Assembly: GCA_030264375.1 (NCBI GenBank) | Contig: JASCQW010000081.1 | Coordinates: forward strand, 92,542,854 to 92,606,853 | Length of the DNA: 64,000 bases | Source of the DNA: Carcharhinus longimanus | Lineage: Eukaryota | Direction of reading: 5' to 3' | In this document: piece after piece, positions 1-64,000 of the stretch | Layout of the letters: each line of letters opens with the position of its first letter | Position numbering within the stretch: the first letter of the stretch is position 1 | Program-made: the position numbers and the translations under genes | The notes under the pieces: model-generated | What the model was told of the DNA's origin: nothing | The model's input: only the letters and a program-made list of their open reading frames with translations | Database searches by the model: none

Positions 1-20
1 GGGGGGATTCTTCATCTTAC

Positions 21-44
21 CATCACTTTCTCTTCTTGTCCCGT
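21..44 (-). CDS. 24-nt microexon (DGTRRESD) in tandem-duplicated cassette
   Basis: ttttttttctcag|ACGGGACAAGAAGAGAAAGTGATG|gtaaga. Confidence 0.72.
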
Positions 45-3000
45 CTGAGAAAAAAAACAAACATTTTCCATTTTTTTCAGACACGTGGCAGAAATACCGC
101 ACCACATATTCTGCATACAGAGACTGAAGGACCCAAAACCTGATTGGCTTGTTCGAAAGGCAGCGGATGATTTTATTCCAAGGTGTTTGCGTTTAAACAA
201 TAATAAAATTAACTTTCCCCCGAGGTTATATACGTTCCAGACAGCAGACAATTTATTTATGACTGATGATTTGCGAATTCCGAAGGTTGCTTCGCCAAGC
301 CGGCATCAATTAAAAACAGTAACTTTGACATTTAATTATATATTAGCGTAAACAAAGAAATAAACAACAACAAATCGGCGCATGGAATAGTTTGTCACCA
401 GACAAAATTAAAGAGACAACCGAATTGTTTGGATATTTCGACAGCATTTACGCATGAACAACATTACTCTGCATTTGCGACGCAAATCCAGGCCAGATTC
501 AACCAGATTGCCATATATCCACCCCCTCACCCCGCTCCCCAGAATGGCATAAATGTGTTTTTACAAAAACAACGCACATTTCAAGATCACTTTCACCGGT
601 TTTATAAGCTGAGTTCAAATCCGACTGTCCGATTATTAGCCCAGGCCTCACACCAATGACATACCACTGGGTCATAGCCTGCCCTGAGCTTGCGAGACCT
701 AGGTATTAATTCTCATACGACTAAAACTATAGCAGAAAATCGTAAAAACGGTGATTAATTCCCCTTTACATGTAACAAGTTTCGGTCACATGCCAGAATT
801 TGAATGTGTCAGCCATTGCCAAGGGGCGGGGGGGGGGGGGGTACGGGGGTGGGGGGGAGTCTTCCTCTTAACATCAGTTCCTTNNNNNNNNNNNNNNNNN
901 NNNNNNNNNNNNNNNNNNNNNNNNNNNNNNNNNNNNNNNNNNNNNNNNNNNNNNNNNNNNNNNNNNNNNNNNNNNNNNNNNNNGGGGGGGGGGGGGAGTC
1001 TTCCTCTTACCATCAGTTCCTTCCGTTGCCACACCGGAGAGAAAGTAAACATTTTAAAATTACATTTTTTAAACATGTGGCAGACAAATCACACCATAAG
1101 TTCTGCACACCGAATTGAAAGGTCTAAAAGCTGATTTGGATATTTGAATGTAGGCGGATGATTTTGTCACAGGGGATTTCCGTTTAATCATGAGCTAATT
1201 TAACTTTCTCCCGAGGTTGCATACGTTCTAGAAAGTGGACAATTTATTTATGCCTGATTATATTCGAATTCTGAAAGCGGTTTCGCCCAGCCGGGATCAA
1301 TTAAAACAAATAACTTTGACATTTCATTTTACATAAGCGTAAACAAAGAAGTGAACAATAACAAATCAAAGCACGAACTTGCTTGGCGCCAAATATAATT
1401 GAAGTTAATAGAGTAGAATCGGGAATGATATATGGGCGCCACTGGCCCGCAATATTTTACAGCTTCACATGAAAGGACAAAATGCCTGACAGTATGAAGC
1501 TTCACTGGTATTCAACGATGCATGTCGCACAATCATAATAGCAAGCGGAATGAAATTTTGTCCAGTGAGCTGCCCTGTAACAGTGAAATCCCCATAAAAC
1601 TCTCATTGCGAGTAATTAGCAACATGATATATAGCATAGATGGACTCGCCACAAATTTATACATGGATGTTCCTTGTAAGATTANNNNNNNNNNNNNNNN
1701 NNNNNNNNNNNNNNNNNNNNNNNATCTATATTCCAACTTTAAATCCATGCTCTTGTTCAGAAGTGGCAAGCAACTGTTTTTGTACCGTTTCACACATCAT
1801 TCGGAAGTTGCCATGTCGTGTGCTCTAATTACCTAACATTATGACTCCCACCTGTTTGCAGGTGAAAAGCCGTGAAATTTAAGGAAAATGGGTATAATTC
1901 TTGTAATAACGATGTCTGCTGTTTTAAGCATTTGAATGGGTGTTTTAATACACTGAGCTCTTCCGGAACTACTTTTGCCTCAGTAAGGTCACAGGAAGAT
2001 TTAGTGATGTTGCGGCCTTGATATTGGCGAATGTCCACTCGCTGGCGCAATTCTGTATCAAAAGTGGATGCAATGTGTGCCATTAAAACATGCAATAAAT
2101 TCACTTGCCTAATAGCATTTCGAAACCCGTACCTGCGACCCAATATCAGTCCTCGTACGTAAACTACAAAAGATACAACGACCGCTCCCAGAGAGAAAAA
2201 AAATATGTCCTGGAAGTGCAGCATTATTCCTTCAACATCACTTGACGATATTTGGAAATCCATGTGCAAGTGGTATGTGTGTAGCTTCCACGACCAATTG
2301 TAGCATTTCATCATACAGGTTTTTTTCCTTTGCGGGGGAGGGAATGTTTCCTCACCGGTGAGGCCTGCCCATTTTGCTCATCCAAAATTTTCGTCGAACA
2401 GATGGTCTTAAGGTTGCATTCCACGTAAGGTAGGAATTCGCACAGTTGCGTTCGGGAGGCAATTCTAGGATTTGTACCTAGTGATAGTGTGAGAATGGCG
2501 ATATATTTCAAATACGAAATTGCATGTGTCTCGGAGCCTATTTGACTTGATTTCGTAGCAGTTAGATACAACGGAGTTGTTTGGATATTTAGACAGCATT
2601 TTAGCGTCAAACGCATTACTCTGCATCTGGCGCGCAGGTCTAGGCCAGACTAAACAAGCATGGTATAAGTACACCTTAGAATGGCATTAACGTGTGATGT
2701 GTGCGTTTTACTGCAATTAACATATACTTCACTACCACTTTCACGGGATTTGTAAACTGCATTCAAATCCAACTGTGAAACTTGGAAGCGTTGCCTCCGA
2801 ATATTAATCCAGACATGACTATTCCAAAGACATTGCAACTGGGCCGTGGCGTCCACTTATTTTGCGAGCCTCCAGTCTGTGGTTTTAATGCGATTAAAAC
2901 TATAGACGAAAATATCGTAAACGTGGTGAACAAATCCCTTTTCTATGCAATAACTTTCAGTCAACTGCCAGAATTTGAATATACTAACCATTGCCAAGGG

Positions 3001-6000
3001 TGAAAAATGTTCGTCTTACCATCAGTATCTCCTGCTGATTCGGCTGGGAAAACGGGTGAACATTTTCAAATTACATTTTTGAGACACCTGACAGAAATAC
3101 CGCAAAACTGACAGCCCTAAAAACTGATTAGCATATTCGAATGGTCGTAAATGATTTTATAACCAGGAATTTGCGATTCGCAAGAATTAATTTGTCTTTA
3201 CTCCTAGATCATACACGTTGCTGAAAGCATGCAGTTTAGTTATGACTGATTATTTGCGAATCCTGAAGGTTTTCTCCTCAATCCGGAATCGATTCAATAC
3301 AATGATGTCTGGCAATTCATTGTCTTTTAGCACAAATGAAGAAGTGAACAGCAAGAAATGAGCTAGCGTCAAACAAAATTTAAGTTAATAGAAAAACAAA
3401 TTGGGAGAGCTACGAGAGCTAACTGCCCGAAATCATTTACAGTTTAACAAAAAAAATGACAAAATGATGAAAATATAAAGCTTCTCTGTCATTCGGCAGT
3501 GCACGAGGCTTAATCATAATAGCAAGCAGAATTAGATGCTTTTTTCTGCTGAATTGTTGCGTTAACAGTAAAACCCCAGAACATCACATTGTGACTGATT
3601 AGAAACATGCTGAGATCGGCACATAGGAAATGCAGATATGGATATTCCTTGTCAGGTCGAAGCATATAAAAGTCAGTCATGCTTCTTGCCCCATTCGTAG
3701 TCGAAATTCCAAACTAAAATGCATGGAGTTATTCAGATGTGGCGGGAAATTGTCTTCATATTGTCACACTCCTCATTTGTGGATTCACATAGATTGTGGT
3801 TTGGTTATTTGTGATTATGGCTCTCAACTTTTCGCAAATAAGTATCATTCTTGAATTAATGATGCCTGCCGCTGTAGGCATTTTAATGGACGGTTCAACA
3901 GACTTAGCTCTTCCAGAACTACCTTTGTCTCAGCAAAATCAGAGGAAGAGTCCCTGATTTGCAGACTTAATAGTGGCGAACGAATTTGCGTCCCATATTG
4001 TGAGACCTAAATATATGCCACTCAGTGGTTCAATTGTGAATAAAACATGGCAGTGTGTACAATTAAAACATGAAATAATTAACTTGCCAAGTATCCTTTA
4101 AAATATGTCGAAACCCCTACTTGCTATCCAAGTGCAATCTGCACGGGAAGTACGCTCGATATAAACAACGCGACAAGAGTAAAGCCACGGATGTACAAAA
4201 AAAAGCACAGCACCACAAATTCTGCAAACTGAGTTTGAAAGGACAACAAACTGGTTTGCATATTCGATTGGTAGTGGATGATTTTATCAGCGGGGATTTC
4301 CGTTTAATAATAAATTAAATTTCCGTTACGCCTAGGTTATATTCATTCCAGAAAACATACAATTTATTTATGACGGATAATTTGCCAATTCTGGATGTAG
4401 TTTCTCCCAGCCGGGATCAACTCAAAACATCACCTGTTTCATTTCATTGTCTATTATCGTTAATCAAAAAGTGAACAACAACAAATTGCGATTGAACTGT
4501 CTTCGCACCACTAAAAATGATATCATTTTTAAAAAAAGGCAGTGATACACGAGAGCCAACTGGTCCACAATGTTTTACCGTTCATCATGAAATGCTAAAA
4601 TAACTGAAACTATGAAGTTGTTTTTTTCTGGCATTCAGCGGTTCATGAGCGACAGTCATATCAGCAAGCACAATGTCATTTTGTCCGGTGAATTTCTGTG
4701 CAACAGTAAAATCCCAGAACACTCTCATTGTGACTAATTAGAAACATGCTGAGATAGAGACATGGGAAATTCATCTATCGATGTTTCTTGTAAGATCAGA
4801 GCGAATAAAAGTAAGAAATGCTCCATGCCCATTCCATGTATGAAATTCCAAATTTAAATGCATGACCTTTCTCAGAAGTATTAAGTGGCAGGCAATTGTT
4901 TTTATATTGTTGCATTCTTCACTCGGAGGTTGGCATGGATTTTGGATTAATTTCTGATTAGGACTCCCACGTGTTTGCAGGTAACACACACGCAATTTGT
5001 ATGCAAATAGATATAATTCTTGAATTAATGCTGCCTGACGCTGCGAGTATTTGAATGGACTGTTCAATACATATAGCTCTTCCGGAATTACTTTTGCCTC
5101 AGCGAAGTTACAGGACGATTCCCTGCTGTGCGGTCTTAATAGTGGCGAGCATTTGGACACGTAAACATGCGTCACTCACTGCCTTAGTTGTATGTAAATC
5201 GGGGCTGCAGAGTGTACCATTAAAACGCGCAATAGCTTAACATGCCAAGTGTTCTTTGTAACATCTCGAAGCTCATAGCTGCGATCCATGATCAGTCATT
5301 ACAATGGACGCACACGAGATACAGCCGCCGCTAGGAGAGAGAAAACAAATTGTGGAGTGGAATTACAGCATCGTTCCTTCAACGTCAGCCCGTGAAAATT
5401 TGGAAATCTCTACGCAAGAGCAACGTCTGTAGCTTCCACGGTCAACTGCAACAGTTCACCAGACATGGTCAAGCACCGTCTAAAAGGTGACTACGAACTG
5501 CTGTCCACAACAGAAGAATAGGTAATTAACGTAAATAAAGGAAACCGAAAATAAATTAGGCCTACACGTGCTTGTTGTCGAACCATGCAATTGTTTCTTT
5601 AAATCTGTAAAAAAAAAATCGTGATAAATTCTATACGCTGAGTGGTTTAGGACAGCATTTCACAACGATTGCACAGAATTAAATATTTATTTAAAAACCC
5701 TTGGCCGTGCAGAAAGATTGACTGATAACTGTTTCTTTGATTTGAGAATGCAGGTTTCCAGGTTAAACAATGATCATCGTCTTTGCATAAATGTATATGA
5801 ATTCACATTATATTGTTTGATTCCGTAGCGTCAAAGTTTTTGATCCGTTTGCTCGAAGTTTGTCTGGGGAGGATTTTAATCGTTTGTTGTCATTTGTAGC
5901 ACCTCAAATTTAGTTCGGCTTCTGCCAATGGAACTCGATATCAAAAATGGTTTCCATCTTTTGCCACCTATAATTACAAGTCTTGATGACGTAATTTTCA

Positions 6001-9000
6001 TATATTAGGAGATCGTGATTTAGATTCGGGTAGTCATCATGACACATATGCCGGACATTCGGAACCTCGGGCCCATGTTGACTCCATTATGGAGAATCCA
6101 TTTAGGCTGAGTGCCCCGCCCGTCCTCAATAATGGGCATTTATTTTCCTCAAGTGGACATTCCATTCTTACTTTGAAATCACGACTTTTCTCCACACCTC
6201 GTCCACTCTCAGGCAGCAAATTTTAAGCTCCCTTCAACAAATCTTGCCTCAGCAACCATATTTTCTCCTTGTTCGTGTACGATCAGGAAAGTTAGCACTT
6301 CCGTTTTTGCCATAACTAAACACGACGGAAAGGGTGACACTCCATCAAATGCCCCCATTATCTTTCCTACTAGCAAAATAATATTAATATTTTTTGTCAT
6401 TGAAATTATATACCTAAAATCATTGTGTCCAGCATATGTCATTTGCATGGTCTCATTTCCAAAGTCTGCTGACCACAACTGATCACATTAATTTAGTTTT
6501 GGCATAATCAGAGATTTATAAATATTCAGTATAAACTCGCATGAAGTCGTTTTTGTTTCCCCTCGTCAATCCATCAACATGTCCCGTCATATTCAAACAT
6601 TTATTCATACTCCCACCTTTTCATGGGAAACACCAATGTCTACCATTCTCCAGTCACAAAAGTGCATTTACCGTAAGTCAATGTTTCATCGCCTTAAACC
6701 ATTTTTAAAAATCGAATCAAACAATGGCGCTCATTTCTCATAAACTTTCAGCTTTTGTCAATAATTTTATGTGGCAATTTCTAAATAAAGCTACGTATAC
6801 GACATCCATGGCATTAACTTCACCCGCTAACTCTGTTGCTTTACCAAACATATTCAATCAAATTTATCTACCAGGATCTGTCATTACTAATTAGCGTCAG
6901 CTTTCACTCGCTCAAAACTTTCCACGTCTCTCTCAAACTTTATATAAATATTATTCACGAAGGTTTACCAATCACTGAAGTTAAATTGATTGGCTTGCCA
7001 TTACAGGGAACATCCGCACACTCCTTCTTGATTTTCCACTCTCCTTCCTTTACCATTAACTCTGTATGAAGGAAGGTAGTAAGATTGCAGAAAGAAATTC
7101 CGTTAACTGTTTCTCTCCCTAATTCTTCTTACCACCCCTCCCTCCCCCGACCATTTGGAACATTGCTGATTCCAGCTGGTCACGATCAGACGGCGAAGCC
7201 ATACTAAGCTTTGCCAGCGTTTTTAGCAGATTCTGTGGATTATTTTTTCACAATATCGACTACCTCGCGATGTCAGTAGCTTGTCAATATACTTTTCATT
7301 AGCATATGATATAATTCAGTTATTTAACGTTGCAACCACGACCTGCATCTCTAGGTGTTTGACTCATTGGTCCCAATTGATCAACCCCACTGCTACCGAG
7401 CTGTTGATGATTAATTTTTTTTAAGAGATTCGGATTTATCTTTATATTTCTTTGCCATAAATTTCTCGCTTTCTCCCTTTGCCTGTTTCATTTTTCATCT
7501 TCAATTCAACTGTCAAGGATTTGTATTCAGACTGGAAATGTCTTAACAAATTCATGTGGCATAACATTATATAGCGTCATAACTGTGTTTTTTTTTTAAA
7601 GAACTTCACAATCCCAAGTAGCCTTGACTTTGACACACTTTTCCCTTGTTCTTGTGATACTGCACCTATGTGTATGAAAAGTCGCCTGTACAAAGTTTTT
7701 CTATTGTTGCTATCTTTTCTGCCAATCTTTTCCCCACTTTACCTTAGCTGTATCACTTTCACTCAAAAGACGTTTCCGCTATTCCAATTAGATAGTTTAC
7801 CTCAGAAGGTTACTTGATATTCTTCATCCTTTACACGCCATTAAACTATAATCACAGGCACCCAAGTGTTCCCCATTGTAAATTCGTTCATTTAGCCGAC
7901 TTTAATCCCCAGCGGCTTATCCAGCAGAACCTCTTCAAGCGTTGGACCGAGAAAATACTCGTAAAGGAATTTCTGCGAAGTAGATTTTGAAATCCCTCCA
8001 ATCCCTATGCTTTAAGCACACCAGCTCAAAATTCTGGTATGGTCAGAAACCCGCATATTAATACTTCATGGCTCTCAATCATCTCTTTGATTTGACTGCA
8101 TATTTACACGCCCATCTGCCGGCAAGGCCTGAGGGCAATATGATAAATAATCCATCTATGGGCGTATTGCACAAGATTTTGTTCTTCCCGGAGACATATG
8201 CATTCCCAGCTCCCCCACGATATAGTGGCGCCATTTTAATTTCTGTTGGTGCCTTCATGGTTGCAGGTATTTTGTACTTCCTACATTCAGTGCACCACTA
8301 GAAACAGGGGTAGCAGCAGATCACATATGCTTTCCTTTCTCTGCAAATTTTGGATTCGCTTGAGGCAGATGTGTTTTGGACAGGTCCAGTCCTATATAGT
8401 TCCGACCTACCTCTGAAAATAAAACCTTCTAGTTCTGCAGTTGTGTCTGCAGGCGAGTGATATGTAAAATTGTGCAAGAAATCACAGAGGAAACGCATAA
8501 CAACCAAATGATTACGAACATATGGGATCAACTCGCACGCAGAATCATAGAATCAGAGAAACCCTGCATTGCAGAATGGTTGGAGCAAAGGGCATAGATG
8601 ATTTAAAAATGAAACAGGAGAAGCACCTGTGGTAATTGGGAATCCAATGTTTCGGCGACGCACGTGCCAAGCAAGTTGAAAGGATTTTCTTTTTGGCCAG
8701 AATAGTCTATTTTGGCGCCACAAAAATCTATGTAAGCACTTCTTAAAGTAAGTCAATCATATGTTAAAAAATGAATACTGTGGCCTTCCTCAATCCCACT
8801 GACAGCCGCCGCCCCTTTAAGCCAAAATTTCAGCCATTAGTTCCTTCAGACTCCTTTGCGCTGGTCCACTGGTTCCAGAACTCGACACTTACCTGCCATT
8901 ATCGAACGATATTTGACTTCGTGCCTACTCCAATAAGTTACCCTAGCGACAGCAGCTTCTACTTCTCAACTGCGCTTTATTATTGCTTTCGGCTTCTCTT

Positions 9001-54000: not shown

Positions 54001-57000
54001 CTAACGATTCATATTTTGCCTTCAATTCTAAAGGAAAATTATAATTTGTTTAGTCCTGTGCATTATACAACCTGAGAGAGTAAGAAAGGAGTGGAATATG
54101 ATCGATCCAACAGAACATAATAGTAATATTAAAAGGTAATAACTGTAGTAATGAAAAAAAGTGCTAGTTGCAGCAAACGTCCTTGGAAACTGCACACAAA
54201 AGAGAAGATCATATATATTGTTTCGACTCCCTAAGAAACTAGTTGCATCATAATACTCTAAATAGGGCTTCCTTCTTCCTGCATTTGTGTCTAAATGTAT
54301 TGAGCACTAACATTTTTGATGTTGTTTGCATGTAACAACGTTAGAAGAAATTAGTTTCTAGTATTATTTCATCGACGTAACGATATCTGCAAATGTTTGT
54401 TGTTTCAAGTGAGAATGAAGTCCAGCATTGATGCTAAAATCTAAATTAAATACAGAAAATGTTGCAAAGACCCAACAGGTCTGGTGGCTTGTGTGGATAG
54501 GAAAGTGTCGTAACGTTTGGAGTCTGTATGAATATTCTTTGAAGTGAAAGATATGGTGTGATGGGATGACGTACACACCATCTACACCCCCTCCCCCATT
54601 GTGTAGCATCTGAGGGCTCCCCACATTTTCTTTGAGCAAATACCCGAAAAAGCCCCGACTGCTACTAGTCTCCTCCGCCTGGCAGTACTTCATCCCTCAC
54701 GAATCAGCTTCTGCTTTAACTTGTCTCATTGCTTGCAAAATAAAAGCTGCGCCCATGGGTATCTGCTTATCTTTTTGTGGGTTATGTCCAACATTCCTTG
54801 CTTCTATTCTACTCAGCCCTGTACTCAGAAAGCTTTTTCCATTATGTTATTAGCAGCATAATCAGAGCTGAATATAAACACACACGTTGCACAAAAAATA
54901 GATATCAATACATTTCGTAATACCACAGCATCATCACACTCCACAACTGCTGCCTGAACCAATAATCGTTGTAGCGTCCTCGCTATTTATTGAAGGACGT
55001 TATGCTGCATTTAATACTTTCTAAAGACACAAAGTAGCATAATATATATAAAAAAATGCTTCACTGAACGGGCAACACCTGCAGTGGTCTTCTGGAAATG
55101 CGAACTTCAACACGATAGGTAACTACACCTGCATTATAGAATCATAGAAACCCGACAGTGCAGGAAGAGGGCCATTTGGCCCATTGAGTATGCGCCGACC
55201 ACAGTTCCACCCAGGCCCTGTCCCCATATCCCTACATATGCCCCCTCTAACTTACCCATCACAGGATACTAAAGAGCAATTTTAGCCCGGCCAATCGACT
55301 TAACCCGCACATCTTTGGACAGTGGGAGGAAACCGGAGCACCCGCAGGAAACCCAAGCAGACATGAGGAGAATGTGCAAACTCCACACAGGCAATGACCC
55401 AAGCTGGGAATCGAACGGATGATCTTAGAGCTGTGAAGCAGCAGTGCTAACCACTGTGCTATCGTGCCGCCCATATTAAATTTGTCATAGATCATGTCGT
55501 CTATGGGCAAGCGAATGCACGAACGAGAACAGCAATAATTACGAAACCCATCAATATTGGAGATGTTCATTTAGAGGAAAACAAGAATTTCAATGCAGGA
55601 GTTCATGTGTGTCATGGTGTCAAAATCATGGGCATCATATGCTTGGTGCACAATATTCTGCAGTGGCCAGCTGTGGTCAAAGCAAATTAGAAATAAGGAT
55701 GACCTATACTGTAATACAGGTTTGATGAACAAGGAATCGTGGCACATTCTTTGGAAAGTGAATCCTTTCAGTGACAACATGCACATTTTCACAAACAACC
55801 GTGCGGTACTTCAGCAGGCCGTAGACCAAGGTCGCCTTTGCGTTGTTGATTATTGCATTGATGTAGCACTTACATTTAATTGGCAAGGGGTTAGGGATCA
55901 GTATCTGAACGCACAAAATCTTTAATTTGCATGAAAAGTATTCGTGCTGATGATTTCTAGAAAACTCAATCGTTCTACACCAAGGAAGGAAATATTAAGG
56001 AGGAATACGAGGCATAAAAATAAAGGTACACACCACTTGCCTGTCTCGACATTAAGTGCAACAAATGTGATAGAGTCGTAACCGTGTGGAAATACAACGC
56101 AGTAACTGAAATAGCAACAACACATACAACTAACGAGAAATTGATGCAGAAAAGTCAATGGTACGTATTCTTCAGAAAAAAAAAATTGGCATCGGGAATA
56201 CTGAAAGAGAAACTGATTAGCAAAATATTGTTTCGTTGGAAAAGGGGGATGGGGGACAGAGTTCGCTTGTAATGACAGTTTATGTAAGTGTGTAATGACT
56301 GGAGAGAGAGAAAAAAAGTTTCTTTGCTAAGTAAGAATTCAGTAAGATTGGACAAATGTGAAAGTCGCAGAAAAAAACGAAGTAGAGATTAATTCCACAA
56401 ATGTATTCAAAGTTGCAGGCCAAAGAAGTCAATAAACAATTGCTGTGTTTGGAGGAAGTTTAAATTGTTAAAATGCTTAATGTATTTATCTAAAAGATTA
56501 GCATGGGAAAAAAAAGCCGCTGAAGGGAAATAAAATGACGGGAAAACGACGTCATTGTCTGTATGGGTTTCAGTAAAACATCTGGCAAAGTGTGACATTA
56601 ACGACTGTTATCAAATCCAATGGAACAAGATCTTCTGACGGATTGGAAAATTGCTTTAAGAACTGAAACTTTCAAGTCTGAGAAATGTTTACTTTTTTCA
56701 GATTGAAACCTTGTGGACAATGGCAATCCATTGGTCCAGCACCAGGATTTTCATATACAACATCGATACTGGGATTCCGATTAAAAAATAAATATAATTT
56801 ATCTATTATAAGAATATTGGAGATCCTGCAGACGGTAATAATCATACATATCCACTGAAAGGACATGGAACGGCGATCAGAAAAAAAACCATTTTGATGA
56901 CATGAAATTCTAAACTTCGGAGAGTTAGTGATGCATTTTTTATACAAAGTTAGGGGGAGAGTGAAGCAAGATCAACTGGTAACTCCCCGAAGAGTACATA

Positions 57001-60000
57001 GCGATTGAATTATCATAGGTCAGTTTGCATATCTCGTTGAGCTGCCGGGAAATATTGGTTAGTTAGAACAACATTCAGGTCTTAGGGTCCAAAATTAGAG
57101 GAATTTCATAAAGAAGTAAGTTATTGTGCTGAACATTCATGCCATTTAATTCAGGGCTCGAATAGATTATTTTACCCAGTACTGGTCAGCGTGCATTAAA
57201 CAATATACGAATGACTCAAAGAGTTTGAAAAAGAAATTGATCATAGTGATCCCACAGTTAAGGGATTGTGGCTTCAGTGTTCTGTTGGCGAAATTGAAGG
57301 TGTTTCTTTGGAACAACGGTGTTTGGCATTGATTTGATAGCTTTTTTCACGATAATGGCAAGTGTAGGCCTGGGACGAAAGGAACCCCAGATAATGGTTT
57401 TGGATAAGTGATGCACAGTCGGAAGGGAAAAATTATATTAATCAGCGCGTGACAGTGACCTGGAATTTGCTGCCTACAAGGGGATGGAAGCTAGGTCAAT
57501 GAAGTACGTTAACTATAAATTCGTTTTGCAGTTCGTGAATATACAAATACTGTTTGGTTGATCTGTGGAATGAAAGCGAATAGAAAGCTCGACAGTGATG
57601 TGACAGTGACTCAATTGCTCAAATAACTGTTGTAGTGCCTGGATCGTTCACCACATAACTCTTTCGTTAGCTGTGTCATAAATGTTTGTAACGGGTTATA
57701 TTAATAGATCAAAACAGTCCTAGTTCCTTGCATTTTAAAATTCGGTCAGCGTTATACAATAAGAGTAGCTGAATCATTTAAACTATGTAATCTGAAAACA
57801 ACGGCTGGAGAGAAACGTTATAAATAAAGGACAAATGTGAAGTTTTCGGGATGAAGCAATGTTAGAAAATGCGCATGGTGTCATAAAGAGTGAAGTAGAC
57901 CTCTGTGGCTCAATGAACTTTTTCATCGATGAAAATTCTGCTAATTTACATACACTCAAATTATAACAAAAATCATCTTTCACATTATCAAGCTTATTAA
58001 AGGAGGTTCAAGGTATCCAACAATTACGTCCTTTCGGCGCCCGACTGTAGAAATGGAGTGATGTTTCTTGAGTGAATGCATATAATTCCCGTCATTTTGG
58101 GACATTTAAGGGGAAGGCGGGTTTGTGCATGGTAAATGCATTGATTGCATTTAAACAAAACCCAGACAAAAAGACTTGTGATGAGGTGGGGTACTGGCGT
58201 TATGAAAGTAATTTAGCAAATATTTGGGGAAAAGTAAGTGAGCGTCACTGGCACAGTGGTTAGCATGGCTACTTCAAGCTCCAGGGTCCCAGCCTGTGTG
58301 AAGCCTGAACGATTTCCCTTTGTCTGCAGGGGTTTCCTCCAGATGTTCCATTTTCCTCCGACCATGAGACGCCAATTATATTAATCCTTTTATCAACATT
58401 TAGTCCATAAGGTAATATGCCTAGGTGATTTAAAAATACCGTAAAAAATGCTTATTTAATGTTGCGAGAATACCTGCCTCAATCAACATTTCAGATGATT
58501 TCCAAATTTTCACCACTCCTGAGTGGACACTAACTCCTCAGATTCCATCCCCCCAACAAAACCATATATTCCTTAAATTAGAAGTGCGCCTTCTGATCTC
58601 AAATAATGTTTCTCAAAGAACAAAGAGAAAAAATGAACAACAAGCGGTGCAGCACAGGAACAGCTCTTAGGCCGGGCAAGCTTGTGCCGATCAAGATACC
58701 CGAAATAAATTAAAGAAAATAACGTTCTGCCATTACTCCGTCCGCATTCCTCTATTCCCCACTTATTTCATGTACCCAGCCAGATGACTGTTAAATGTCA
58801 CGAATACGTCTGTTTGCACGAGGTTCTATGACAATGCGTTTCAGAACTCGCCATTCTCTGCGTGAAAAGCTTCCCCAGCACATTTTCATAAAAAGTTCCC
58901 CTCGTACCCTGCATTAGTGCCCACCTGTAATTGATACTTGCACCCTTGGAAAACACCACTGACTATCCACCCTGTCTATGCCTCTCATAATTTTGTGCAC
59001 ACTATCAGATATTCCCTCAGCCTGTTTCTTAACAGTGAATACAATCCGATTTTATTCAACTGTTACATGTGTTGATGTTTTTCTCTTTTACTCCGCAGGT
59101 GCGTCGGTCCACCTTGTTGTCTAACGAGGGGCNNNNNNNNNNNNNNNNNNNNNNNNNNNNNNNNNNNNNNNNNNNNNNNNNNNNNNNNNNNNNNNNNNNN
59201 NNNNNNNNNNNNNNNNNNNNNNNNNNNNNNNNNNNNNNNNNNNNNNNNNNNNNNNNNNNNNNNNNNNNNNNNNNNNNNNNNNNNNNNNNNNNNNNNNNNN
59301 NNNNNNNNNNNNNNNNNNNNNNNNNNNNNNNNNNNNNNNNNNNNNNNNNNNNNNNNNNNNNNNNNNNNNNNNNNNNNNNNNNNNNNNNNNNNNNNNNNNN
59401 NNNNNNNNNNNNNNNNNNNNNNNNNNNNNNNNNNNNNNNNNNNNNNNNNNNNNNNNNNNNNNNNNNNNNNNNNNNNNNNNNNNNNNNNNNNNNNNNNNNN
59501 NNNNNNNNNNNNNNNNNNNNNNNNNNNNNNNNNNNNNNNNNNNNNNNNNNNNNNNNNNNNNNNNNNNNNNNNNNNNNNNNNNNNNNNNNNNNNNNNNNNN
59601 NNNNNNNNNNNNNNNNNNNNNNNNNNNNNNNNNNNNNNNNNNNNNNNNNNNNNNNNNNNNNNNNNNNNNNNNNNNNNNNNNNNNNNNNNNNNNNNNNNNN
59701 NNNNNNNNNNNNNNNNNNNNNNNNNNNNNNNNNNNNNNNNNNNNNNNNNNNNNNNNNATTCTACGTTTACATCCAAGTCGTAAATATGTACAACAACCAG
59801 CAAGCAACCAGGCATCGATCCCTGTGCTGCATCACTGGTCAAGTAACAAATGCAGCCCTTTTCCATCTTCACCCTTTGCTTCATACTAAAAATCAGTTTT
59901 TCATCCACTTTTCGAACTTGGTTATTTCCCTTGGGCTCTAAACTTGTTGGACCAGCATTCTACATGGGCCTTGTCCATTGCCTTTTTGAAATCCAATAAA

Positions 60001-63000
60001 CTACATAAAATGATACCCTCATCAATATATTTAGTTTATTTCAGAACAAAATCTCAATTATTTTAGTTAGACAGTAACTCGAACGAACGCATCTATACTT
60101 ATTATGCCTGATCAATCTTTACCATTTCAAGTGTTTATGAATCATGTCTCTCAGATGTTTTTCCTAATAACTTCCCTTTACACCAACTGGCCTGTAAGAT
60201 TTGCTGACTCCTGCTCCCCTTCTTCAATAAAGGTACCAGATTAGCTATACTCCAGTCATCTGACTCTTCACCTGTGGTCGTTGGAAATTTGGATATCTTC
60301 GGTAAGGGTCCTGCAAGCTCCTCCCTTACGTCCTTTAGCAGGCTGCGATGAATCTCATCAGGTCCTGGAGATTTACAATTTTCCTGTCCACGAAAACATG
60401 TAGTAACTGTCCTTTATTAACCTTAACGTGCAGTCTATCTAGCTCTTTGTGTCCTTCGTTATTTTTATAAATCTCTTCATTATCCCAACTGAAACTTCCA
60501 GCTACTATATTTTCCTCCTTAGTGAATAAAAACGAACAAATAAATTTAAATTCTCAGCTACATCCTCTGGCTCCAGACACAGATTGCCCCTTTGGCTCAA
60601 ATGGGCAGAACTTTTCCTTGGCCATGACATCGCTCTTTATACACTTATAAAATGCCTTTGATTTTCCTTAATCATATCTGCCAATTAGATATCCTGCTTC
60701 CTCTGCACAGCGAATCTCTCTCTTTGGAGCCCTCTTCCCACAAGGACCCTGTGGTTCGGAAGTTCCTCTTCCTTTTTCGGTGCCCTCTTTGTATCTTATG
60801 ATCCTTTGTTTATCTTATCAAAATGTGGATATACCTTGACATACAGGTTTCCCAGGAAGCGCCTCCCTTCCCCTTCAATCTTGAAGATATACGATGAAGG
60901 CTGTGGTGTAGTGGTATTATCAGTGGACTAGTCATGCAGGGACACGGGCTAATGCCGTCACTGGTTCAAATCACAACGTAGCAGACATAGTAATTTGTAG
61001 TCAATGACAATGTGTAATTACAGGAATAATGATGACAATGACATAATTGTCGATAGTTGGAAAATCCATTCTGGTTTACGAATATTCTTTAGATAAGGAT
61101 ATCTGCCGTCCTTACCTGGTCGGGCCTACATGTGACNNNNNNNNNNNNNNNNNNNNNNNNNNNNNNNNNNNNNNNNNNNNNNNNNNNNNNNNNNNNNNNN
61201 NNNNNNNNNNNNNNNNNNNNNNNNNNNNNNNNNNNNATCTATTCTTTAGATAAGGATATCTGCCGTCCTTACCTGGTCGGGCCTACATGTGACTCCAGAC
61301 CACCAGAAATGGTTGACTCTCAAGAGATGGACAATAATTTCTGGCTGCTCAGTGATGCCGCCCATGATTTTCATTAAACCCTACAGTGGAGGAGGAGGGG
61401 ATTTGGCCTATCAAGTGAGCACAGATTTTCTCACATGCATCTTACCCAGGCCCATCCATACCTCATCCTCGTTATTCCACATATTTATCCCGTTAATCGA
61501 CCTTCCCTCTATTCGTAGAGTCATTGAGATTTGCAACATGGAAACAGATCCTTTGCCCCAACTTGCCCATGCCGTCAGGTTATGATATTAAGCTGGCTCG
61601 AATACCCCAGGCTTGGTTCATATTCCTATCTATCAATCTTGTCCTTGCAAATTCTATATACTGCAAAGCCATGTAAGGAGAAAAAAATGAAAGATGCAAC
61701 GTATAAGAAAAGTTACAATACAAAAATAGGGCACGGAAACAAACAGCCCAACGTGCATACTTGTACACATTACTGCAAGTGGCAGAGTAGCATGAGAAAT
61801 AAGAAACACACGGATTCCTAGGGATATAAAAAGAAGCATAGTGTAAAAATGCAAGGGAGTGATAAAGAACCAATATAAAGTGTATTTTTTGCCTCAATAC
61901 GGTAATTGCATCATAGTTGTTCAGTGTAATACGAACGCTTTGGAGTGGCAAAATTTCACATGAATGTTTACATAGCTGAATATCATTCATTATGTACAAT
62001 GGTCGGGAGGCTGTGACCTCGTGGTATTGTTGCTGGACTATTTATCGAGGGATTCAACTAATCTTCTGGGAGTTTAGAAAGAATACTGCCATGTCAACCA
62101 GTGGAATTNNNNNNNNNNNNNNNNNNNNNNNNNNNNNNNNNNNNNNNNNNNNNNNNNNNNNNNNNNNNNNNNNNNNNNNNNNNNNNNNNNNNNNNNNNNN
62201 NNNNNNNNTGCACTGATGACCACGACGCCATTATCGATTGTTGAACAACATATCTGGTTCACTAATCTCCTTTAGGGAATCAATTCTGCTACCTGTTGTC
62301 TGGCACATGTGTGTCCAGATCCATAGCAACGTGGTTGACTCTCAATAGTCTTCTGAGATGCATGTAATGCAGTAAGGTCACGTAAGGATGCAGAATTAAT
62401 GCTGGCGAGCCAGCGACGCCCATTCCGAACGAATGAATAAACATGTATGGATTGCGATAGGTGGAGCCATTCTCCATCGAAAAGAGATCCGCTGGAAGAT
62501 TTGATATTTGAGTGTTGAAAATCCAATTCAGTACATGAGCCGAGTAGAGGGAACAAATTTTAACTGAGGCACAAAATAATCTTTGGTGTCTCAGTATAAG
62601 TTAGTTTTCACAGTGTGATGTTATAATGTGAAAGGCAGTGTCTGGATGATTTGTGGAATCGGTTGTAACCCCGAGTTTCAAAAGCAAATTAGATCATATT
62701 CGGAACACAGAAAATAAATGGTATGAGATTTAAAAAAAAACTTCTTACACAAATTTGCCGCAGCCACAACGGATCAAGTTCCTGCTTCAATGCTCGAACT
62801 ATTCTGTGGTTCGATGTGAAGCCACCTTTAAATTAAGGTGCTCGAGATGATGATGTTAGGCAAGGCAAGACATCACACAGTTTGGTTGGTCGTTATGCTG
62901 GACAGCACAATCAGCCTTAAAGACAGTAGTTTGAAATAGTATGGTGTTGCTGGCAAGATTTTTCTTATGTCGCACCATGCTCTCTAGCAAACTGATACAC

Positions 63001-63926
63001 CATTAATAGTATTTCCTGTGCTCTTGCCTTATCTATGTTTTGTATCTGCAATTGTCACGTAAGATGTATATTTTGTAGAATCCCTGACTGTCTTCCGTAG
63101 ACCTTAACATAACTCTATATTGAAAGTATTTAATTTTGCTCACCAATTCTGGAAATAAATATTGCTACACCTGTCGATATTTGGTACAGACAAAATTGCA
63201 ACGTAATTTGGCTTCTGCAACAAAGCCGTCCAATCACATCGATCCTTTCAGGAGATTGCCAGAGAACAGAATTCTGCTTATGCCTTTAAATAAATTGTAC
63301 TCACTCTCCTTCAACATTAAACATCAAAATTTCACGAAATAAAGATATGAATTCTCAAAGTATATTACCTTTCAATTCTTTCATCTTCTCCGCTGATAAA
63401 CCGGAAGCAAATATAGAATGTAAGTGTTTTTTTAAAGCAGGGAATCGTGATGTGTTATGACAATCTTCTGTGTTACTTAGTTGTTTGGATTTGTGCGATG
63501 GTTCAACACAGGGTACATTGAGCTTCCTCAATTCTACAAAAAAAACAATTAGCAGAAGCAATTTATGGAAAGGAAAGGAAAAATACTTCATCGGTGACCT
63601 GGGCAATTCCCCCTCCCCACCCCACGAAAAGAATGGTATTTTAAATAGCCTCAAATTATTCATAGCCAACATGTGTCACATTTTTCGTTGCAACTGAACA
63701 TGACCCGTTATTATCGCAATTACCATTATGCTGCTAATACGGACTGAGGAATGGATCTTGGAAACTCCACCTGTTGTGTGAGACACATTGCAGATTGTGC
63801 TGATTGTCTTCTTGCAACTGCAACCCCCATCTTTACGACGTAAACTGAAAGAAATAATACCTGCCATGTCCACATAAAATAAATCATGGGGTACTTTACC
63901 GAGTTGTTTTCGACATTTTACCACCT
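21..63926 (-). CDS. Partial multi-microexon gene (about 21 symmetric phase-1 exons, 546 nt, ~182 aa) encoding a charged coiled-coil-like segment; family unassigned, architecture resembles butyrophilin/BG-type heptad exons
   Basis: Spliced product: xVVKCRKQL-AEKMKELK-ELKAKYESL-EISLAKKEK-ELIEAHDS-EQMMATFH-GLHMLTCHQ-EFALQTSQK-KLKTLSSILQKT-EKSLIEREE-ELDAKCKSD-NVRIAKLRA-EIRDLRASR-AEKITGNQQ-ELSDVEKSLIEC-QADLEDKTA-RAVQT-PDALRK-VRKLKELS-AESAGDTD-DGTRRESD. Each exon is bounded by AG and GT. Phase 1 is open throughout, including junction codons; at least nine exons have a stop in phase 0. No start or stop was identified with certainty. Confidence 0.72.
1011..1034 (-). pseudogene. Paralogous 24-nt microexon (GVATEGTD) with acceptor AG replaced by CG
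   Basis: actttctctccg|GTGTGGCAACGGAAGGAACTGATG|gtaaga; same flanks as the copies at 21-44 and 3020-3043. Confidence 0.6.
3020..3043 (-). CDS. 24-nt microexon (AESAGDTD) in tandem-duplicated cassette
   Basis: cccgttttcccag|CCGAATCAGCAGGAGATACTGATG|gtaaga. Confidence 0.72.
5584..5604 (-). CDS. 21-nt microexon candidate (DLKKQLH); not in core model
   Basis: ttttttttttacag|ATTTAAAGAAACAATTGCATG|gttcga; strong acceptor, heptad-like peptide, weak donor. Confidence 0.4.
6640..8200 (-). mobile_element. Ancient, heavily decayed CR1-type LINE ORF2 remnant
   Basis: Minus-strand traces AMDVVY (~6795-6812), PINLTSVIGK (~6962-6995, cf. RPVSLTSVVGK) and endonuclease-like PT.EEVLLD...GEHLG (~7860-7950). 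Confidence 0.7.
9417..9497. repeat. Imperfect (TG)n/(CG)n microsatellite
   Basis: gtgtatgtttgtgcgcgcgcgtgtgtgtgtctttgtgtg... Confidence 0.7.
9887..9910 (-). CDS. 24-nt microexon (VRKLKELS)
   Basis: ttttctttttccaacag|TTCGAAAGTTAAAGGAACTCTCAG|gtaggc; peptide resembles AEKMKELK. Confidence 0.75.
10454..10600 (-). promoter_or_regulatory. Possible internal promoter and short first exon
   Basis: Donor ACG|gtgagc at 10453; upstream on minus strand an extended E-box GTCACGTG (10519-10526) and a CRE/ATF-like TGACGTAA (10591-10598). Motifs only. Confidence 0.3.
12338..12355 (-). CDS. 18-nt microexon (PDALRK)
   Basis: tttatttttcctcag|CGGACGCGCTGAGAAAAG|gtaagg; near-consensus sites. Confidence 0.72.
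12545..12870 (-). mobile_element. LINE 3'-end fragment with (TTTGA)n tail
   Basis: gatttgatttgatttattatt tail followed by sequence resembling a non-LTR 3' end; family not resolved. Confidence 0.5.
14323..14495. repeat. Compound tetranucleotide microsatellite (GATA/GACA/GGAT)n
   Basis: tagatagatagaaagata...gatggatggatggatagatgaatggatg. Confidence 0.85.
14750..15420 (+). mobile_element. Penelope-like element remnant (GIY-YIG endonuclease C-terminal part and tail)
   Basis: ORF 14860-15099 VACHSNSP...HISVQGLLHSS...CKL resembles the VA.HFN...SV.GL...RK.E...GLN pattern of Penelope endonucleases (recognised from memory). Confidence 0.6.
15688..15702 (-). CDS. 15-nt microexon (RAVQT)
   Basis: attatcattgcag|GTGCTGTACAAACTC|gtaagt. 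Confidence 0.6.
16588..16732 (-). mobile_element. SINE 3' fragment
   Basis: Matches the tail of the SINE at 49225-49485 (cacaagtaggct...ttactgtgaa.atccc...cctgtt.cgg). Confidence 0.65.
16820..18431 (+). mobile_element. 5'-truncated CR1-type LINE (reverse transcriptase region and 3' UTR), disrupted
   Basis: ORF 16848-17585 contains NYRPVS.TSVV, SQHGF.KGR.CLTSL, DVVYMD..KAFDKVPH and KFADDTK; TGA at 17583 with homology continuing; ends in a ttctatgtttcta tail. Confidence 0.95.
19320..19346 (-). CDS. 27-nt microexon (QADLEDKTA)
   Basis: tgtcttgtttcgttag|AGGCTGACTTGGAAGACAAAACAGCAC|gtaagt. Confidence 0.78.
20267..20302 (-). CDS. 36-nt microexon (ELSDVEKSLIEC)
   Basis: gtttctcttccag|AATTAAGCGATGTGGAGAAATCTCTCATTGAATGCC|gtaagc; shares EKSLIE with the exon at 39209; stop in phase 0. 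Confidence 0.8.
21497..21523 (-). CDS. 27-nt microexon (AEKITGNQQ)
   Basis: ttctgcattttcag|CGGAAAAAATTACCGGAAATCAGCAAG|gtaaat. Confidence 0.75.
23480..25860 (-). mobile_element. Decayed non-LTR retrotransposon fragments (L2/CR1-clade like)
   Basis: Long degenerate stretch with no intact ORF; 25480-25850 resembles the reverse complement of the 3' tail shared with the SINE at 29490-29695. Family and limits uncertain. Confidence 0.4.
26345..26690 (+). mobile_element. CR1-type LINE 3' fragment
   Basis: LGLFSLERRRLRGDLIAVYEIMKGIDRV in the plus frame, same region as 18020-18110. Confidence 0.9.
26907..27230 (+). mobile_element. tRNA-headed SINE (HE1/V-SINE-like) with CR1-derived tail
   Basis: Core cattctccccgtg..tgcgtgggttt.ctccgggtgctc.ggtttc.tcccaca; tail gggccgaaggg, also present at 29880-30010 and 35200-35275. 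Confidence 0.8.
27351..28615 (+). pseudogene. env: Decayed endogenous viral envelope/fusion glycoprotein gene
   Basis: Acceptor attttctcag at 27350; signal-like MIYLIGLIIGIST; GLILKYTEKTLYDNSHHELVPVVVDI; basic site SSRR then ELVNDMA/AYGAGVTTINAL (fusion-peptide-like, with frameshift); helical LANLDTKFRVLTQHVKQTL; CAYGQWMIEQLRENLGQVRSGHVPSWIS; FEVENIG. Several stops and frameshifts; cut by a retroelement tail at ~28615. Confidence 0.7.
28612..28790 (-). mobile_element. Two retroelement 3' tails (SINE/CR1) before an assembly gap
   Basis: catagaacccatagaaccctacagtgcagaaggaggccc and cataagaacataagaaataggagcaggagtaggcc. Confidence 0.75.
28891..29240 (+). mobile_element. CR1-type LINE 3' end
   Basis: FRTEVRRNFFTQ; tail ggccaaatggcctactcctgcttct. 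Confidence 0.85.
29490..29695 (-). mobile_element. SINE of a second family, body and tail
   Basis: Reverse complement of the elements at 60895-61375 and 62010-62440 (gaccatgaaaccattgtcgattg...gtggttgactct...atgctggc). Confidence 0.75.
30030..31567 (+). mobile_element. Older 5'-truncated CR1-type LINE (RT region and 3' end)
   Basis: NYRPVSLTSVVGKLL, GVPQGSVL, MFADDTK (ORF 30290-30730); multiple stops. Confidence 0.92.
31610..31830 (+). mobile_element. Degenerate second-family SINE fragment
   Basis: tgatgaccatgaaaacggtgtcgat...tctggttcattgatgcccttt. Confidence 0.6.
31845..32600 (-). mobile_element. CR1-type LINE 3' part
   Basis: ORF 32319-32609 KKANGRLAVISKLIEYKGKEALLQLYK. Confidence 0.88.
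33526..33552 (-). CDS. 27-nt microexon (EIRDLRASR)
   Basis: atgaatccacag|AAATTAGAGATCTGCGTGCATCCAGAG|gttagc; 110-nt intron from the previous exon. Confidence 0.65.
33663..33689 (-). CDS. 27-nt microexon (NVRIAKLRA)
   Basis: ttctttatcatatag|ATGTCAGAATAGCTAAATTGAGGGCAG|gtatgc; stop in phase 0. Confidence 0.75.
34283..34409. repeat. Short element with imperfect inverted ends (Penelope-terminus or MITE-like)
   Basis: cagtacaaagtctcacaaaaccagattaaagt ... actttaacttggtgttgtgagatttcttactg; related partial copy at ~46722-46830. Confidence 0.6.
35378..35620 (-). mobile_element. CR1/SINE 3' tail fragment
   Basis: catagaatccatagaatc...agaggcacttcagcccatcg. Confidence 0.7.
35743..37990 (+). mobile_element. 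Decayed Gypsy-type LTR retrotransposon: putative LTR (35743-36395), gag and start of protease
   Basis: TG...TAACA LTR candidate with AATAAA; gag-like KEVEGFF..VEQVAK (~37120-37170) and FILEEFENVFPEVISTH (~37440-37490); degenerate protease MLRDACA (~37946-37966, cf. ILRDTGA). Confidence 0.7.
38117..38864 (+). mobile_element. LTR-like segment related to the upstream LTR
   Basis: TGTTAC...CA ends; shares the 3' motif atcctcaca...aa.tagaaa with 36344-36370. Confidence 0.5.
39057..39083 (-). CDS. 27-nt microexon (ELDAKCKSD)
   Basis: attaactttag|AGTTGGATGCGAAGTGCAAATCTGACA|gtgagt; peptide resembles ELKAKYESL exon. Confidence 0.75.
39209..39235 (-). CDS. 27-nt microexon (EKSLIEREE)
   Basis: taatttgttctag|AGAAGAGTCTGATTGAAAGAGAGGAAG|gtaaac; stop in phase 0. 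Confidence 0.78.
39658..39675 (-). CDS. 18-nt microexon candidate (EQLILP); not in core model
   Basis: gtacttttaag|AACAGTTAATTCTGCCTC|gtaaga; weak acceptor. Confidence 0.3.
40334..40369 (-). CDS. 36-nt microexon (xLKTLSSILQKT)
   Basis: tattgttcgttccag|AACTAAAGACCTTAAGCAGCATTCTTCAAAAAACAG|gtgatt; stop in phase 0. Confidence 0.65.
44515..44812 (+). mobile_element. Degenerate tRNA-headed SINE
   Basis: gcattgctgcctca.catcagggaaccaggcttgattc head; ggcctc...gcactgtgggattatatt tail. Confidence 0.7.
45789..46709. repeat. Inverted repeat: ~136-bp arms at 45789-45924 and 46572-46709
   Basis: Opposite-strand ORFs give ISAPFCGFTFKILSILLPYEKQDFIHVFRMYL vs ISASFCGFTFKALSILFSYEKQGFIRVFRMHL. Confidence 0.9.
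47134..47187 (-). CDS. 54-nt phase-1 exon candidate (xQRCTNCEEYRNILAPTN); not in core model
   Basis: Strong acceptor gtgttttgtgttttctag, open in phase 1, weak donor G|gttaat. Confidence 0.35.
47749..47775 (-). CDS. 27-nt microexon (EFALQTSQK)
   Basis: tatttcctcttacag|AATTCGCCCTTCAGACAAGCCAGAAAA|gtaaga. Confidence 0.72.
48063..48690 (+). pseudogene. C2H2 (Kruppel-type) zinc-finger pseudogene, about 5-6 broken fingers
   Basis: EKPCRCSHCGRSL...RSHS; RWKCGK*; THTGEGSFSFSMCGNGFT...RRTH; GERSFIYSLCGRGFK...KHR; FACSICGKRCLQ*SELLTHQRI; stops and frameshifts. Confidence 0.85.
48741..48767 (-). CDS. 27-nt microexon candidate (GLHMLTCHQ)
   Basis: atttccaagtcag|GTTTACACATGCTCACGTGTCACCAAG|gtaact; weaker acceptor and less coil-like peptide. 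Confidence 0.45.
49225..49485 (-). mobile_element. tRNA-headed SINE (HE1/V-SINE-like)
   Basis: acgcagacacggggagaacgtgcaaactccacacaga...aatcgaacccaggtccctggcgctgtgaagcagcagtgctaaccactgtgc. Confidence 0.88.
51621..51644 (-). CDS. 24-nt microexon (EQMMATFH)
   Basis: ttttctgcaaattcag|AACAAATGATGGCCACTTTTCACG|gtgact; stop in phase 0. Confidence 0.55.
52680..52703 (-). CDS. 24-nt microexon (ELIEAHDS)
   Basis: ctctctcgtag|AACTGATAGAAGCTCATGACTCAG|gtaaca; stops in both other phases. Confidence 0.72.
53276..53302 (-). CDS. 27-nt microexon (EISLAKKEK)
   Basis: ttttttattgggcag|AAATATCACTAGCCAAGAAAGAAAAAG|gtaaga; stop in phase 0. Confidence 0.78.
54001..54027 (-). CDS. 27-nt microexon (ELKAKYESL)
   Basis: attttcctttag|AATTGAAGGCAAAATATGAATCGTTAG|gtatga; stop in phase 0. 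Confidence 0.78.
55135..55472 (-). mobile_element. Near full-length tRNA-headed SINE (HE1/V-SINE-like)
   Basis: Minus-strand head gggcggcacgatagcacagtggttagcactgctg (A box) and gttcgattcc (B box), conserved core, ttctatgattcta tail. Confidence 0.92.
58240..58362 (+). mobile_element. SINE 5' fragment
   Basis: tggcacagtggttagc A-box head and ggtttcctcc core. Confidence 0.65.
58615..60880 (-). mobile_element. Old CR1-type LINE interrupted by an unrelated segment and an N-gap
   Basis: caaagaacaaag tail at 58615; after the gap LTSDAAQGSMPGCLLVVVHIYDLD (cf. VTSGVPQGSVLGPLLF..YINDL). Confidence 0.75.
60895..61375 (+). mobile_element. tRNA-headed SINE, second family (gap inside)
   Basis: gtggtgtagtggta A box, ggttcaaatc B box, body ccttacctggtc.ggcctacatgtgactccagacc. 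Confidence 0.8.
62010..62440 (+). mobile_element. tRNA-headed SINE, second family (gap inside)
   Basis: tctggttcactaatctcctttaggg...gtggttgactctc...atgctggcgagccagcgacgcccattcc.aacgaatgaataaa. Confidence 0.78.
63369..63392 (-). CDS. 24-nt microexon (AEKMKELK)
   Basis: cttccggtttatcag|CGGAGAAGATGAAAGAATTGAAAG|gtaata. Confidence 0.75.
63900..63926 (-). CDS. 27-nt microexon (xVVKCRKQL)
   Basis: ctctccttttaattcag|AGGTGGTAAAATGTCGAAAACAACTCG|gtaaag; TAA in phase 0, open in phase 1. Confidence 0.7.
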
Positions 63927-64000
63927 CTGAATTAAAAGGAGAGCGATAGACAAATTGTAAGGTTCATCGACTTGAAAGAATGCTAAAACACAGTAGGTAA

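Follow-up and report, generated by a model that had tools for sequence, protein, structure and literature searches.

Triadin and the micro-exon genes of Schistosoma contain series of small symmetric exons whose skipping leaves the frame intact, and the enterophilins of guinea pig are soluble proteins that combine a long leucine zipper with a B30.2 domain and have no Ig domains. In chicken, the BG genes encode a signal peptide, an IgV domain, a transmembrane (TM) segment and a tail spread over 13-36 exons, each of 21 (or 24) nt and with one heptad, and no B30.2 (PMC4046983). Coiled-coil tails made of small exons are known from BG, and heptads together with B30.2 from butyrophilins.

The window analysed here is a stretch of 64,000 nt (contig JASCQW010000081.1, hereafter C81, positions 92542854-92606853) of the 2.68-Gb genome of the shark Carcharhinus longimanus. 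From comparison with a paralog and with catshark proteins, we consider it rather probable that the whole window (1..64000, minus strand) is the middle of a gene, A, whose microexons, at least 80 in number, encode a cytoplasmic rod, and that a paralog, B, has the same array together with a B30.2 domain that was lost in A. These genes would represent a cartilaginous-fish family located by the MHC and present in databases as fragments under automatic names. The literature searched, which takes in few subscription journals, held no description of this shark family.

Chicken BG and the intestinal zipper protein are like the shark genes in being MHC-linked and in having a long coiled-coil tail made of many small exons; BG exon number also varies between paralogs, and a soluble tail form of BG recalls the shark rod, which has no Ig or TM. 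The shark genes are unlike BG in having at least 80 and at least 118 exons of 27, 36 and 24 nt, the latter number being more than three times the largest BG tail (36), in heptads that span exons (9+12 residues), and in the B30.2 head of B, which has no Ig or TM. Butyrophilins (BTN/BTNL) share with them a coiled coil followed by B30.2 and linkage to the MHC (PMC12841164). Unlike butyrophilins, however, the shark proteins have no IgV, IgC or TM, their predicted rod is ~1,200 residues long, where butyrophilins have a few heptads, and their B30.2 is only about 30-35% identical and falls in a separate clade. TRIM proteins with B30.2 (TRIM21, TRIM39, "A33-like") are similar in their coiled coil plus PRY-SPRY and in lying in a B30.2 cluster, but the shark clade has no RING or B-box and its coiled coil is a microexon array. 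For these two reasons the TRIM-type names that RefSeq gives to models of the family (TRIM21/TRIM39/A33-like) are automatic misnomers; golgin-like and uncharacterized are further automatic names in databases. The nearest architectural analogue is found in the enterophilins, which are mammalian, heptad-repeat proteins and shorter than the shark ones; the resemblance is likely to be convergent. Unlike the shark genes, triadin and the Schistosoma micro-exon genes are not known to have a B30.2 or an order-dependent heptad register.

A preliminary description of the window, made from its letters only, had listed 21 phase-1 exons on the minus strand, numbered by their donor ends. All 21 AG..GT blocks were found at these places, open in phase 1, and the lengths given were correct (27 nt, n=11; 24 nt, n=6; 36 nt, n=2; 18 nt, n=1; 15 nt, n=1). 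The scan of both strands and of shuffled sequence which it had proposed as a check came out in favour of the array. In a blind scan of the window, with splice scores computed from a splice-site frequency table, 21 phase-1-open candidates of 24, 27 or 36 nt scoring at least 3 were present on the minus strand versus 3 on the plus strand, and 20 dinucleotide-block shuffles gave 0-6 each, with a mean of 2.5. Neighbouring length triplets yielded 3-6 candidates in the same scan, and a separate scan for 24 and 27 nt only returned 16 on the minus and 2 on the plus strand. A counterpart with intact splice sites exists in paralog B for 18 of the 21 (one of them with a GC donor in B), and 19 are supported by the tandem paralog or by catshark proteins. 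The warning that some exons might be false and others missed proved justified, as two look false and four were added (45434-45460, 43532-43558, 12055-12081 and 5566-5604). Joined, the 23 supported exons give 615 nt, or 204 codons, free of stops, and none of 253 pairwise in-frame skips creates one. By these comparisons the predicted array is genuine, and it takes the form of other microexon arrays, that is, a run of same-phase exons of 3n nt which are skippable in frame.

Following the minus strand, the 27-nt exon VVKCRKQL (63900..63926) and the 24-nt exon EKMKELK (63369..63392), both phase 1, have intact B counterparts and are not in the Scyliorhinus torazame model XP_072329363.1 (P0173). The next three, LKAKYESL (54001..54027, 27 nt), ISLAKKEK (53276..53302, 27 nt) and LIEAHDS (52680..52703, 24 nt), are intact in B and present in P0173, the last with 5/7 identity. 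The exon FALQTSQK (47749..47775, 27 nt) matches the catshark proteins P0002 (5/8) and P0173 (4/8); no counterpart was found in B, where N gaps occur at that place. It is followed by two of the added 27-nt exons, LQKTIRDT (45434..45460; catshark 6/8) and THLEMKEI (43532..43558; catshark 3/8 in register), and by LKTLSSILQKT (40334..40369, 36 nt; catshark 8/11), KSLIEREE (39209..39235, 27 nt; present in catshark), LDAKCKSD (39057..39083, 27 nt), VRIAKLRA (33663..33689, 27 nt; catshark 5/8), IRDLRASR (33526..33552, 27 nt; catshark 4/8) and EKITGNQQ (21497..21523, 27 nt; catshark weak, 2/8 in register), all intact in B, the peptide LDAKCKSD being identical in B and P0173. The 36-nt exon LSDVEKSLIEC (20267..20302; catshark 6/11) is the one whose B counterpart has a GC donor (C81:92213527). 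Also intact in B are ADLEDKTA (19320..19346, 27 nt; catshark 5/8), AVQT (15688..15702, 15 nt; ALQT in P0002), DALRK (12338..12355, 18 nt; DALKK in P0002), the added NARLRIEI (12055..12081, 27 nt; P0002 4/8) and RKLKELS (9887..9910, 24 nt; P0002 5/7). Linker exons close the window: the added 39-nt LKKQLHGSTTST (5566..5604), which is intact and of 39 nt in B and in register in P0002, ESAGDTD (3020..3043, 24 nt), which pairs intact with a 24-nt exon of B in one comparison and shifted by 3 nt in another, and GTRRESD (21..44, 24 nt), with an intact B counterpart and flanks like those of the 3020 exon.

Four further blocks were considered. On the minus strand, the 24-nt QMMATFH (51621..51644), with weak sites, and the 27-nt LHMLTCHQ (48741..48767), with an acceptor score of -1.7, had been listed as exons; they are probably not, since B has nothing corresponding to either, and tiling of the catshark protein runs across both with no gap. 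The block 45573-45599 was rejected, being broken in B and absent from catshark, and an open 36-nt minus-strand candidate with good sites, TTAELEGFIFR (8411..8446), was left uncounted, being broken in B and absent from P0002.

The array continues beyond both sides of the window, in agreement with the earlier proposal, which placed this stretch in the central part of a single gene for a coiled coil. DNA searches detected a collinear copy of the window ~357 kb away, and a scan of 958 kb identified two full minus-strand paralogs. Gene A runs from an ATG exon of 132 nt (C81:92765409-92765278) to a last intact microexon starting at C81:92447515 and a broken B30.2 exon starting at C81:92430225. Paralog B is located directly downstream, from an ATG exon of 132 nt at about C81:92399615 to an intact B30.2 exon, its last (C81:91991804-91991296). 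In a conservative catalogue, A has at least 80 phase-1 microexons with 769 codons over 318 kb, and B at least 118 with 1,139 codons over 408 kb, mostly of 27, 36 and 24 nt; on joining, the B catalogue contains two stops at junctions and must therefore include errors or omissions. The array had been called unusually long, which it is, but it is far larger than was thought. In A the lengths of 27 nt (n=42), 36 nt (n=20), 24 nt (n=10) and 21 nt (n=2) prevail among the 80 exons. A third ATG exon, that of copy C, is found at C81:93338189, and samples of 5-10 kb below it contain the same exon type down to ~92.82 Mb. The samples of C revealed no B30.2, though gaps could hide one, and a look-alike (NFKFNPGT, C81:93201729) is a chance match; a fourth B30.2 exon of the family lies at 94.27 Mb. 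The region is rich in such domains, with 46 of the 72 B30.2 matches of the genome on C81:85.9-102 Mb, and 12 of its 22 MHC class I matches are ~3 Mb from the locus. The catshark ortholog is on a chromosome of 163 Mb, and the same size is given for MHC chromosome 13 (PMC9992475).

The exons of the two paralogs have been maintained. From 78 B candidates picked by splice score or catshark match, blind to A, 13 could not be aligned to DNA of A; of the remaining 65, 58 are intact in A. As a control, 445 AG..GT blocks were taken at random from introns, and of the 128 that could be aligned only 9 survive. The seven that are not intact comprise two alternative borders, one 3-nt shift, one likely false B call and three true losses. 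Exons are 74% identical between A and B and their flanks ~70%; dN/dS is 0.47 (bootstrap 0.36-0.59; 582 codons, 67 exon pairs). At the level of sequence this shows purifying selection on the microexons of A, although a ratio of 0.47 is a weak kind of constraint.

Conservation in related species, which had been named as a further check, is seen in the catshark proteins. P0173 starts with the same ATG exon and could be chained onto 57 exons of A with 325 of 502 residues identical, at a score of 1304 compared with 31.5 for the plus strand and 128.7 for the reversed protein. Within the window it covers an unbroken series of 14 exons and omits those at 63900..63926 and 63369..63392. The S. canicula model XP_038671249.1 overlaps that of S. 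torazame and runs on into SPRY. These RefSeq models are automated, and the exons that they join, and the order of joining, are those of the shark locus. A relative of 586 aa was found on a Logan contig of 3,402 nt, a length too short for these introns, so we infer that it comes from spliced RNA. Among the matches listed in a sequencing-run search with the last exon and 3' region of B there was no RNA run (six were of unknown kind), and an Atlas search with P0173 returned generic coiled-coil clusters only (116-121 shared features, no TM above 0.5).

Hydrophobic residues recur with a period of 3.50-3.52 in three shark proteins and of 3.53 in the joined window exons. Isoleucine and leucine are found at positions 2, 5 and 9 of the 36-nt exons and mostly at position 4 of the 27-nt ones, a placement by which 12+9 residues make 21, or three heptads. 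The description of a mainly nine-residue module is incomplete, the repeating unit being better seen as 9+12. Across modules of 9, 12 and 8 residues the heptad is carried by exon order, not by exon length: shuffling the order lowers the heptad power from 0.60 to 0.40, and no shuffle out of 200 reached the real value in A, nor in B. An adjacent pair of 36 and 27 nt, encoding 21 residues, has been lost together in A, and P0173 contains a 21-residue duplication. The claim that any subset of exons could be skipped holds for the frame, but by the same analysis the coil register is preserved by some combinations only and is usually lost. As for combinatorial skipping, single-block differences of 6-12 residues (6, 8, 9, 12) and one of 23 are seen in RefSeq isoforms and paralogs of relatives only. 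Such single-block skips, instead of 21-residue pairs, argue against strictly register-keeping splicing.

The last exon of B matches Pfam SPRY (E=1e-9), and BTN3A1 and TRIM21 are the best PDB matches of its B30.2. This C-terminal domain is present in B and in the catshark ortholog and broken in A; a B30.2 exon had been expected downstream, and it is there as a remnant in A and intact in B. In a tree of 164 B30.2 sequences (FastTree, midpoint root, sequences with fewer than 85 aligned positions dropped and the broken exon of A left out), B belongs to a 22-member clade with support of 1.0, containing sequences of catshark, basking shark, bamboo shark, whale shark, electric ray and chimaera and three unnamed ones. 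The tree separates the clade; it gives no decision between a TRIM and a BTN origin. By regular-expression labels, no RING, B-box, Ig or TM is flagged in any of the 22. A coiled coil precedes PRY-SPRY, as in TRIM proteins, but without RING or B-box. As judged by its sequences, this is a separate cartilaginous-fish B30.2 clade and not a butyrophilin/BG member, because the assembled DNA upstream yielded no exon for Ig, TM or RING and its B30.2 falls in its own clade. The butyrophilin/BG frame first suggested for the locus is thus apt for the B30.2 that ends B and the catshark ortholog, and fails for the upstream part.

On that upstream part depends the reading in which a membrane protein of butyrophilin/BG type, with IgV, IgC and TM exons ahead of the array, has the array as its cytoplasmic tail. 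The PDB match to BTN3A1, the nearness of the MHC, an ATG exon that is open ahead of its ATG, and the small exons of BG tails (PMC4046983) are in its favour. Upstream of A, B and C, however, none of 80 minus-strand open frames of at least 80 aa matches Ig, RING or B-box families, the sole family match being a reverse transcriptase; the interval of B was bounded and has gaps of ~100 nt only, while those of A and C have larger gaps or were sampled. No splice-bounded open exon of 60-200 nt with a hydrophobic 19-mer was found upstream of A or B, the room upstream of B is only ~30 kb, between the dead B30.2 exon of A and the ATG exon of B, and none of the 22 clade sequences has Ig or TM, all of which makes a membrane protein very improbable. 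Gene A might instead be a recently dead duplicate, the window exons being real but the protein no longer made and only B functional. Its B30.2 exon has deletions of 2, 13, 1, 1, 1 and 5 nt and two stops in ~500 bp, the last two microexons before it are dead, and the 3' third of the array is missing, ~126 kb of B's array being without counterpart in A, where a 5.5-kb gap lies at the junction. Genome DNA searches for the two B stretches absent from A found no second copy beyond repeats, and these stretches represent either true deletion or unassembled DNA; three B exons without an alignable A counterpart fall at assembly gaps. Moreover, A has suffered three point losses among its exons (one donor, one acceptor, and one exon reduced to 26 nt, a frameshift if included). 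Against its death stand the survival of its exons (58/65, compared with 9/128 in the control blocks) and the closeness of A to catshark, which equals that of B (291/445 residues for A and 290/445 for B in one comparison, 127/188 and 133/188 in another). The B30.2 of A, on the contrary, has drifted (73/156 identical to catshark vs 99/156 in B), and its indels amount to about the neutral load of one lineage since the duplication, introns showing ~12 gap openings per 500 bp with both lineages summed. This load and this drift indicate that B30.2 died early and the microexons were kept, and neutral decay of the head beside microexons as close to catshark as those of B implies that selection went on maintaining A as a rod for a long time after the head was lost. 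Only a very recent death fits such a history, and we regard it as unlikely.

A different question is where the transcript of A ends. Were its last intact microexon to skip the dead B30.2 exon and join the 132-nt exon of B, then A and B, and perhaps C, would form one giant transcript of ~200 exons over 775 kb, encoding a rod of ~2,300 residues with a single B30.2 head. The three ATG exons are all of 132 nt, phase 1-1 and open through a 14-nt leader, the last intact exon of A keeps a strong donor (6.2) while everything beyond it has decayed, and only one intact B30.2 exon was found in C81:91.9-94.2 Mb, all of which speaks for such a transcript. Yet the dead B30.2 exon still has an intact acceptor (3.4) and is followed by AATAAA/ATTAAA signals; DNA including a donor-like site is conserved upstream of both ATG exons, which fits separate promoters; the catshark models are of single-copy size; and copy C was only sampled, and gaps could conceal its B30.2. 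We find such a transcript quite unlikely. If it exists, C into A into B would span 1.35 Mb with several hundred exons, a number approaching that of titin. The length of the rod would then depend on which of the three 132-nt exons served as the start and on which 9+12-residue units were skipped, and the product would be a splice-tunable ruler several hundred nanometres long, with one B30.2 sensor, in shark innate immunity.

In the preferred reading, of separate genes A and B, a B-type protein would begin with a short acidic peptide carrying a conserved Y-I/M-N-I motif, continue as ~1,200 rod residues broken by Gly/Ser/Pro linkers and end in the B30.2 head. The rod may self-associate and hold the heads on a long stalk, making B a scaffold or sensor without RING, membrane anchor or ligase of its own, and its working mode could be like that of a BG or butyrophilin tail or of the coiled-coil-plus-PRY-SPRY half of a TRIM protein. 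The last intact microexon of A would be spliced to the surviving acceptor of the dead B30.2 exon; reading across that junction gives a tail of ~53 residues whose stop is in the last exon, so that nonsense-mediated decay is not expected. Gene A likely encodes a headless rod of ~850 residues, which may co-assemble with the headed form and tune or dilute B. The rod model of Narcine is likewise without B30.2. Exon skipping could alter rod length, 9+12 pairs keeping the register and single exons adding a kink. The pair of headed and headless paralogs suggests a possible built-in regulator. The locus also raises the questions of whether the coiled-coil register acts as a filter on splicing and on the gain or loss of exons, and of how 100 or more microexons are reliably spliced across 400 kb, and it is relevant to the origin of the BTN/BG/TRIM cluster among the earliest jawed vertebrates.

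Some minor features of the locus were also recorded. The ATG exons of A and B are 89% identical over 102 nt, and the opening 15 codons of all three ATG exons, which read like MAAPVDEYINIGTEP and include a Y-x-N-I motif, are far better conserved than the rod exons; the same N-terminal codons are present in S. torazame, and the motif could presumably bind SH2 domains. Two linker exons of 21 nt that are nearly identical, SAAKTE and SAATAE, follow shortly downstream of the window at C81:92535111 and 92528370, where B carries four coil exons, and a second duplicated pair of 21-nt exons is at C81:92465025/92463061. In copy C near-identical 27-nt exons (RDWMDQKS, RDKLNTRS, RDMMDIRS, RYKMGIRS) have expanded over at least 80 kb (C81:93.00-93.08 Mb). 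The window contains 1,267 N bases, its largest gap (~59130-59760) being able to hide exons, and a GATG/GATA microsatellite at 14428-14497 was the sole tandem repeat detected; an Rfam search gave no match. Reverse-transcriptase-like open frames lie in introns on the plus strand (16815-17585 and 30248-30730), which we take to be typical of CR1-type LINE fragments. Finally, an intron of B holds an acidic, Ser/Pro-rich open frame of 401 codons (C81:92032015-92030813, minus strand), whose repeats resemble the SDP motifs of the TACC family. It has no Pfam match, and the catshark model does not contain it. A good acceptor lies at 92031978, in-frame donors are possible 954 or 972 nt further on, and two relatives with 31-41% identity occur in long open frames on contigs C166 and C122. 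This frame may be an exon that was captured, or else a gene nested in the intron.
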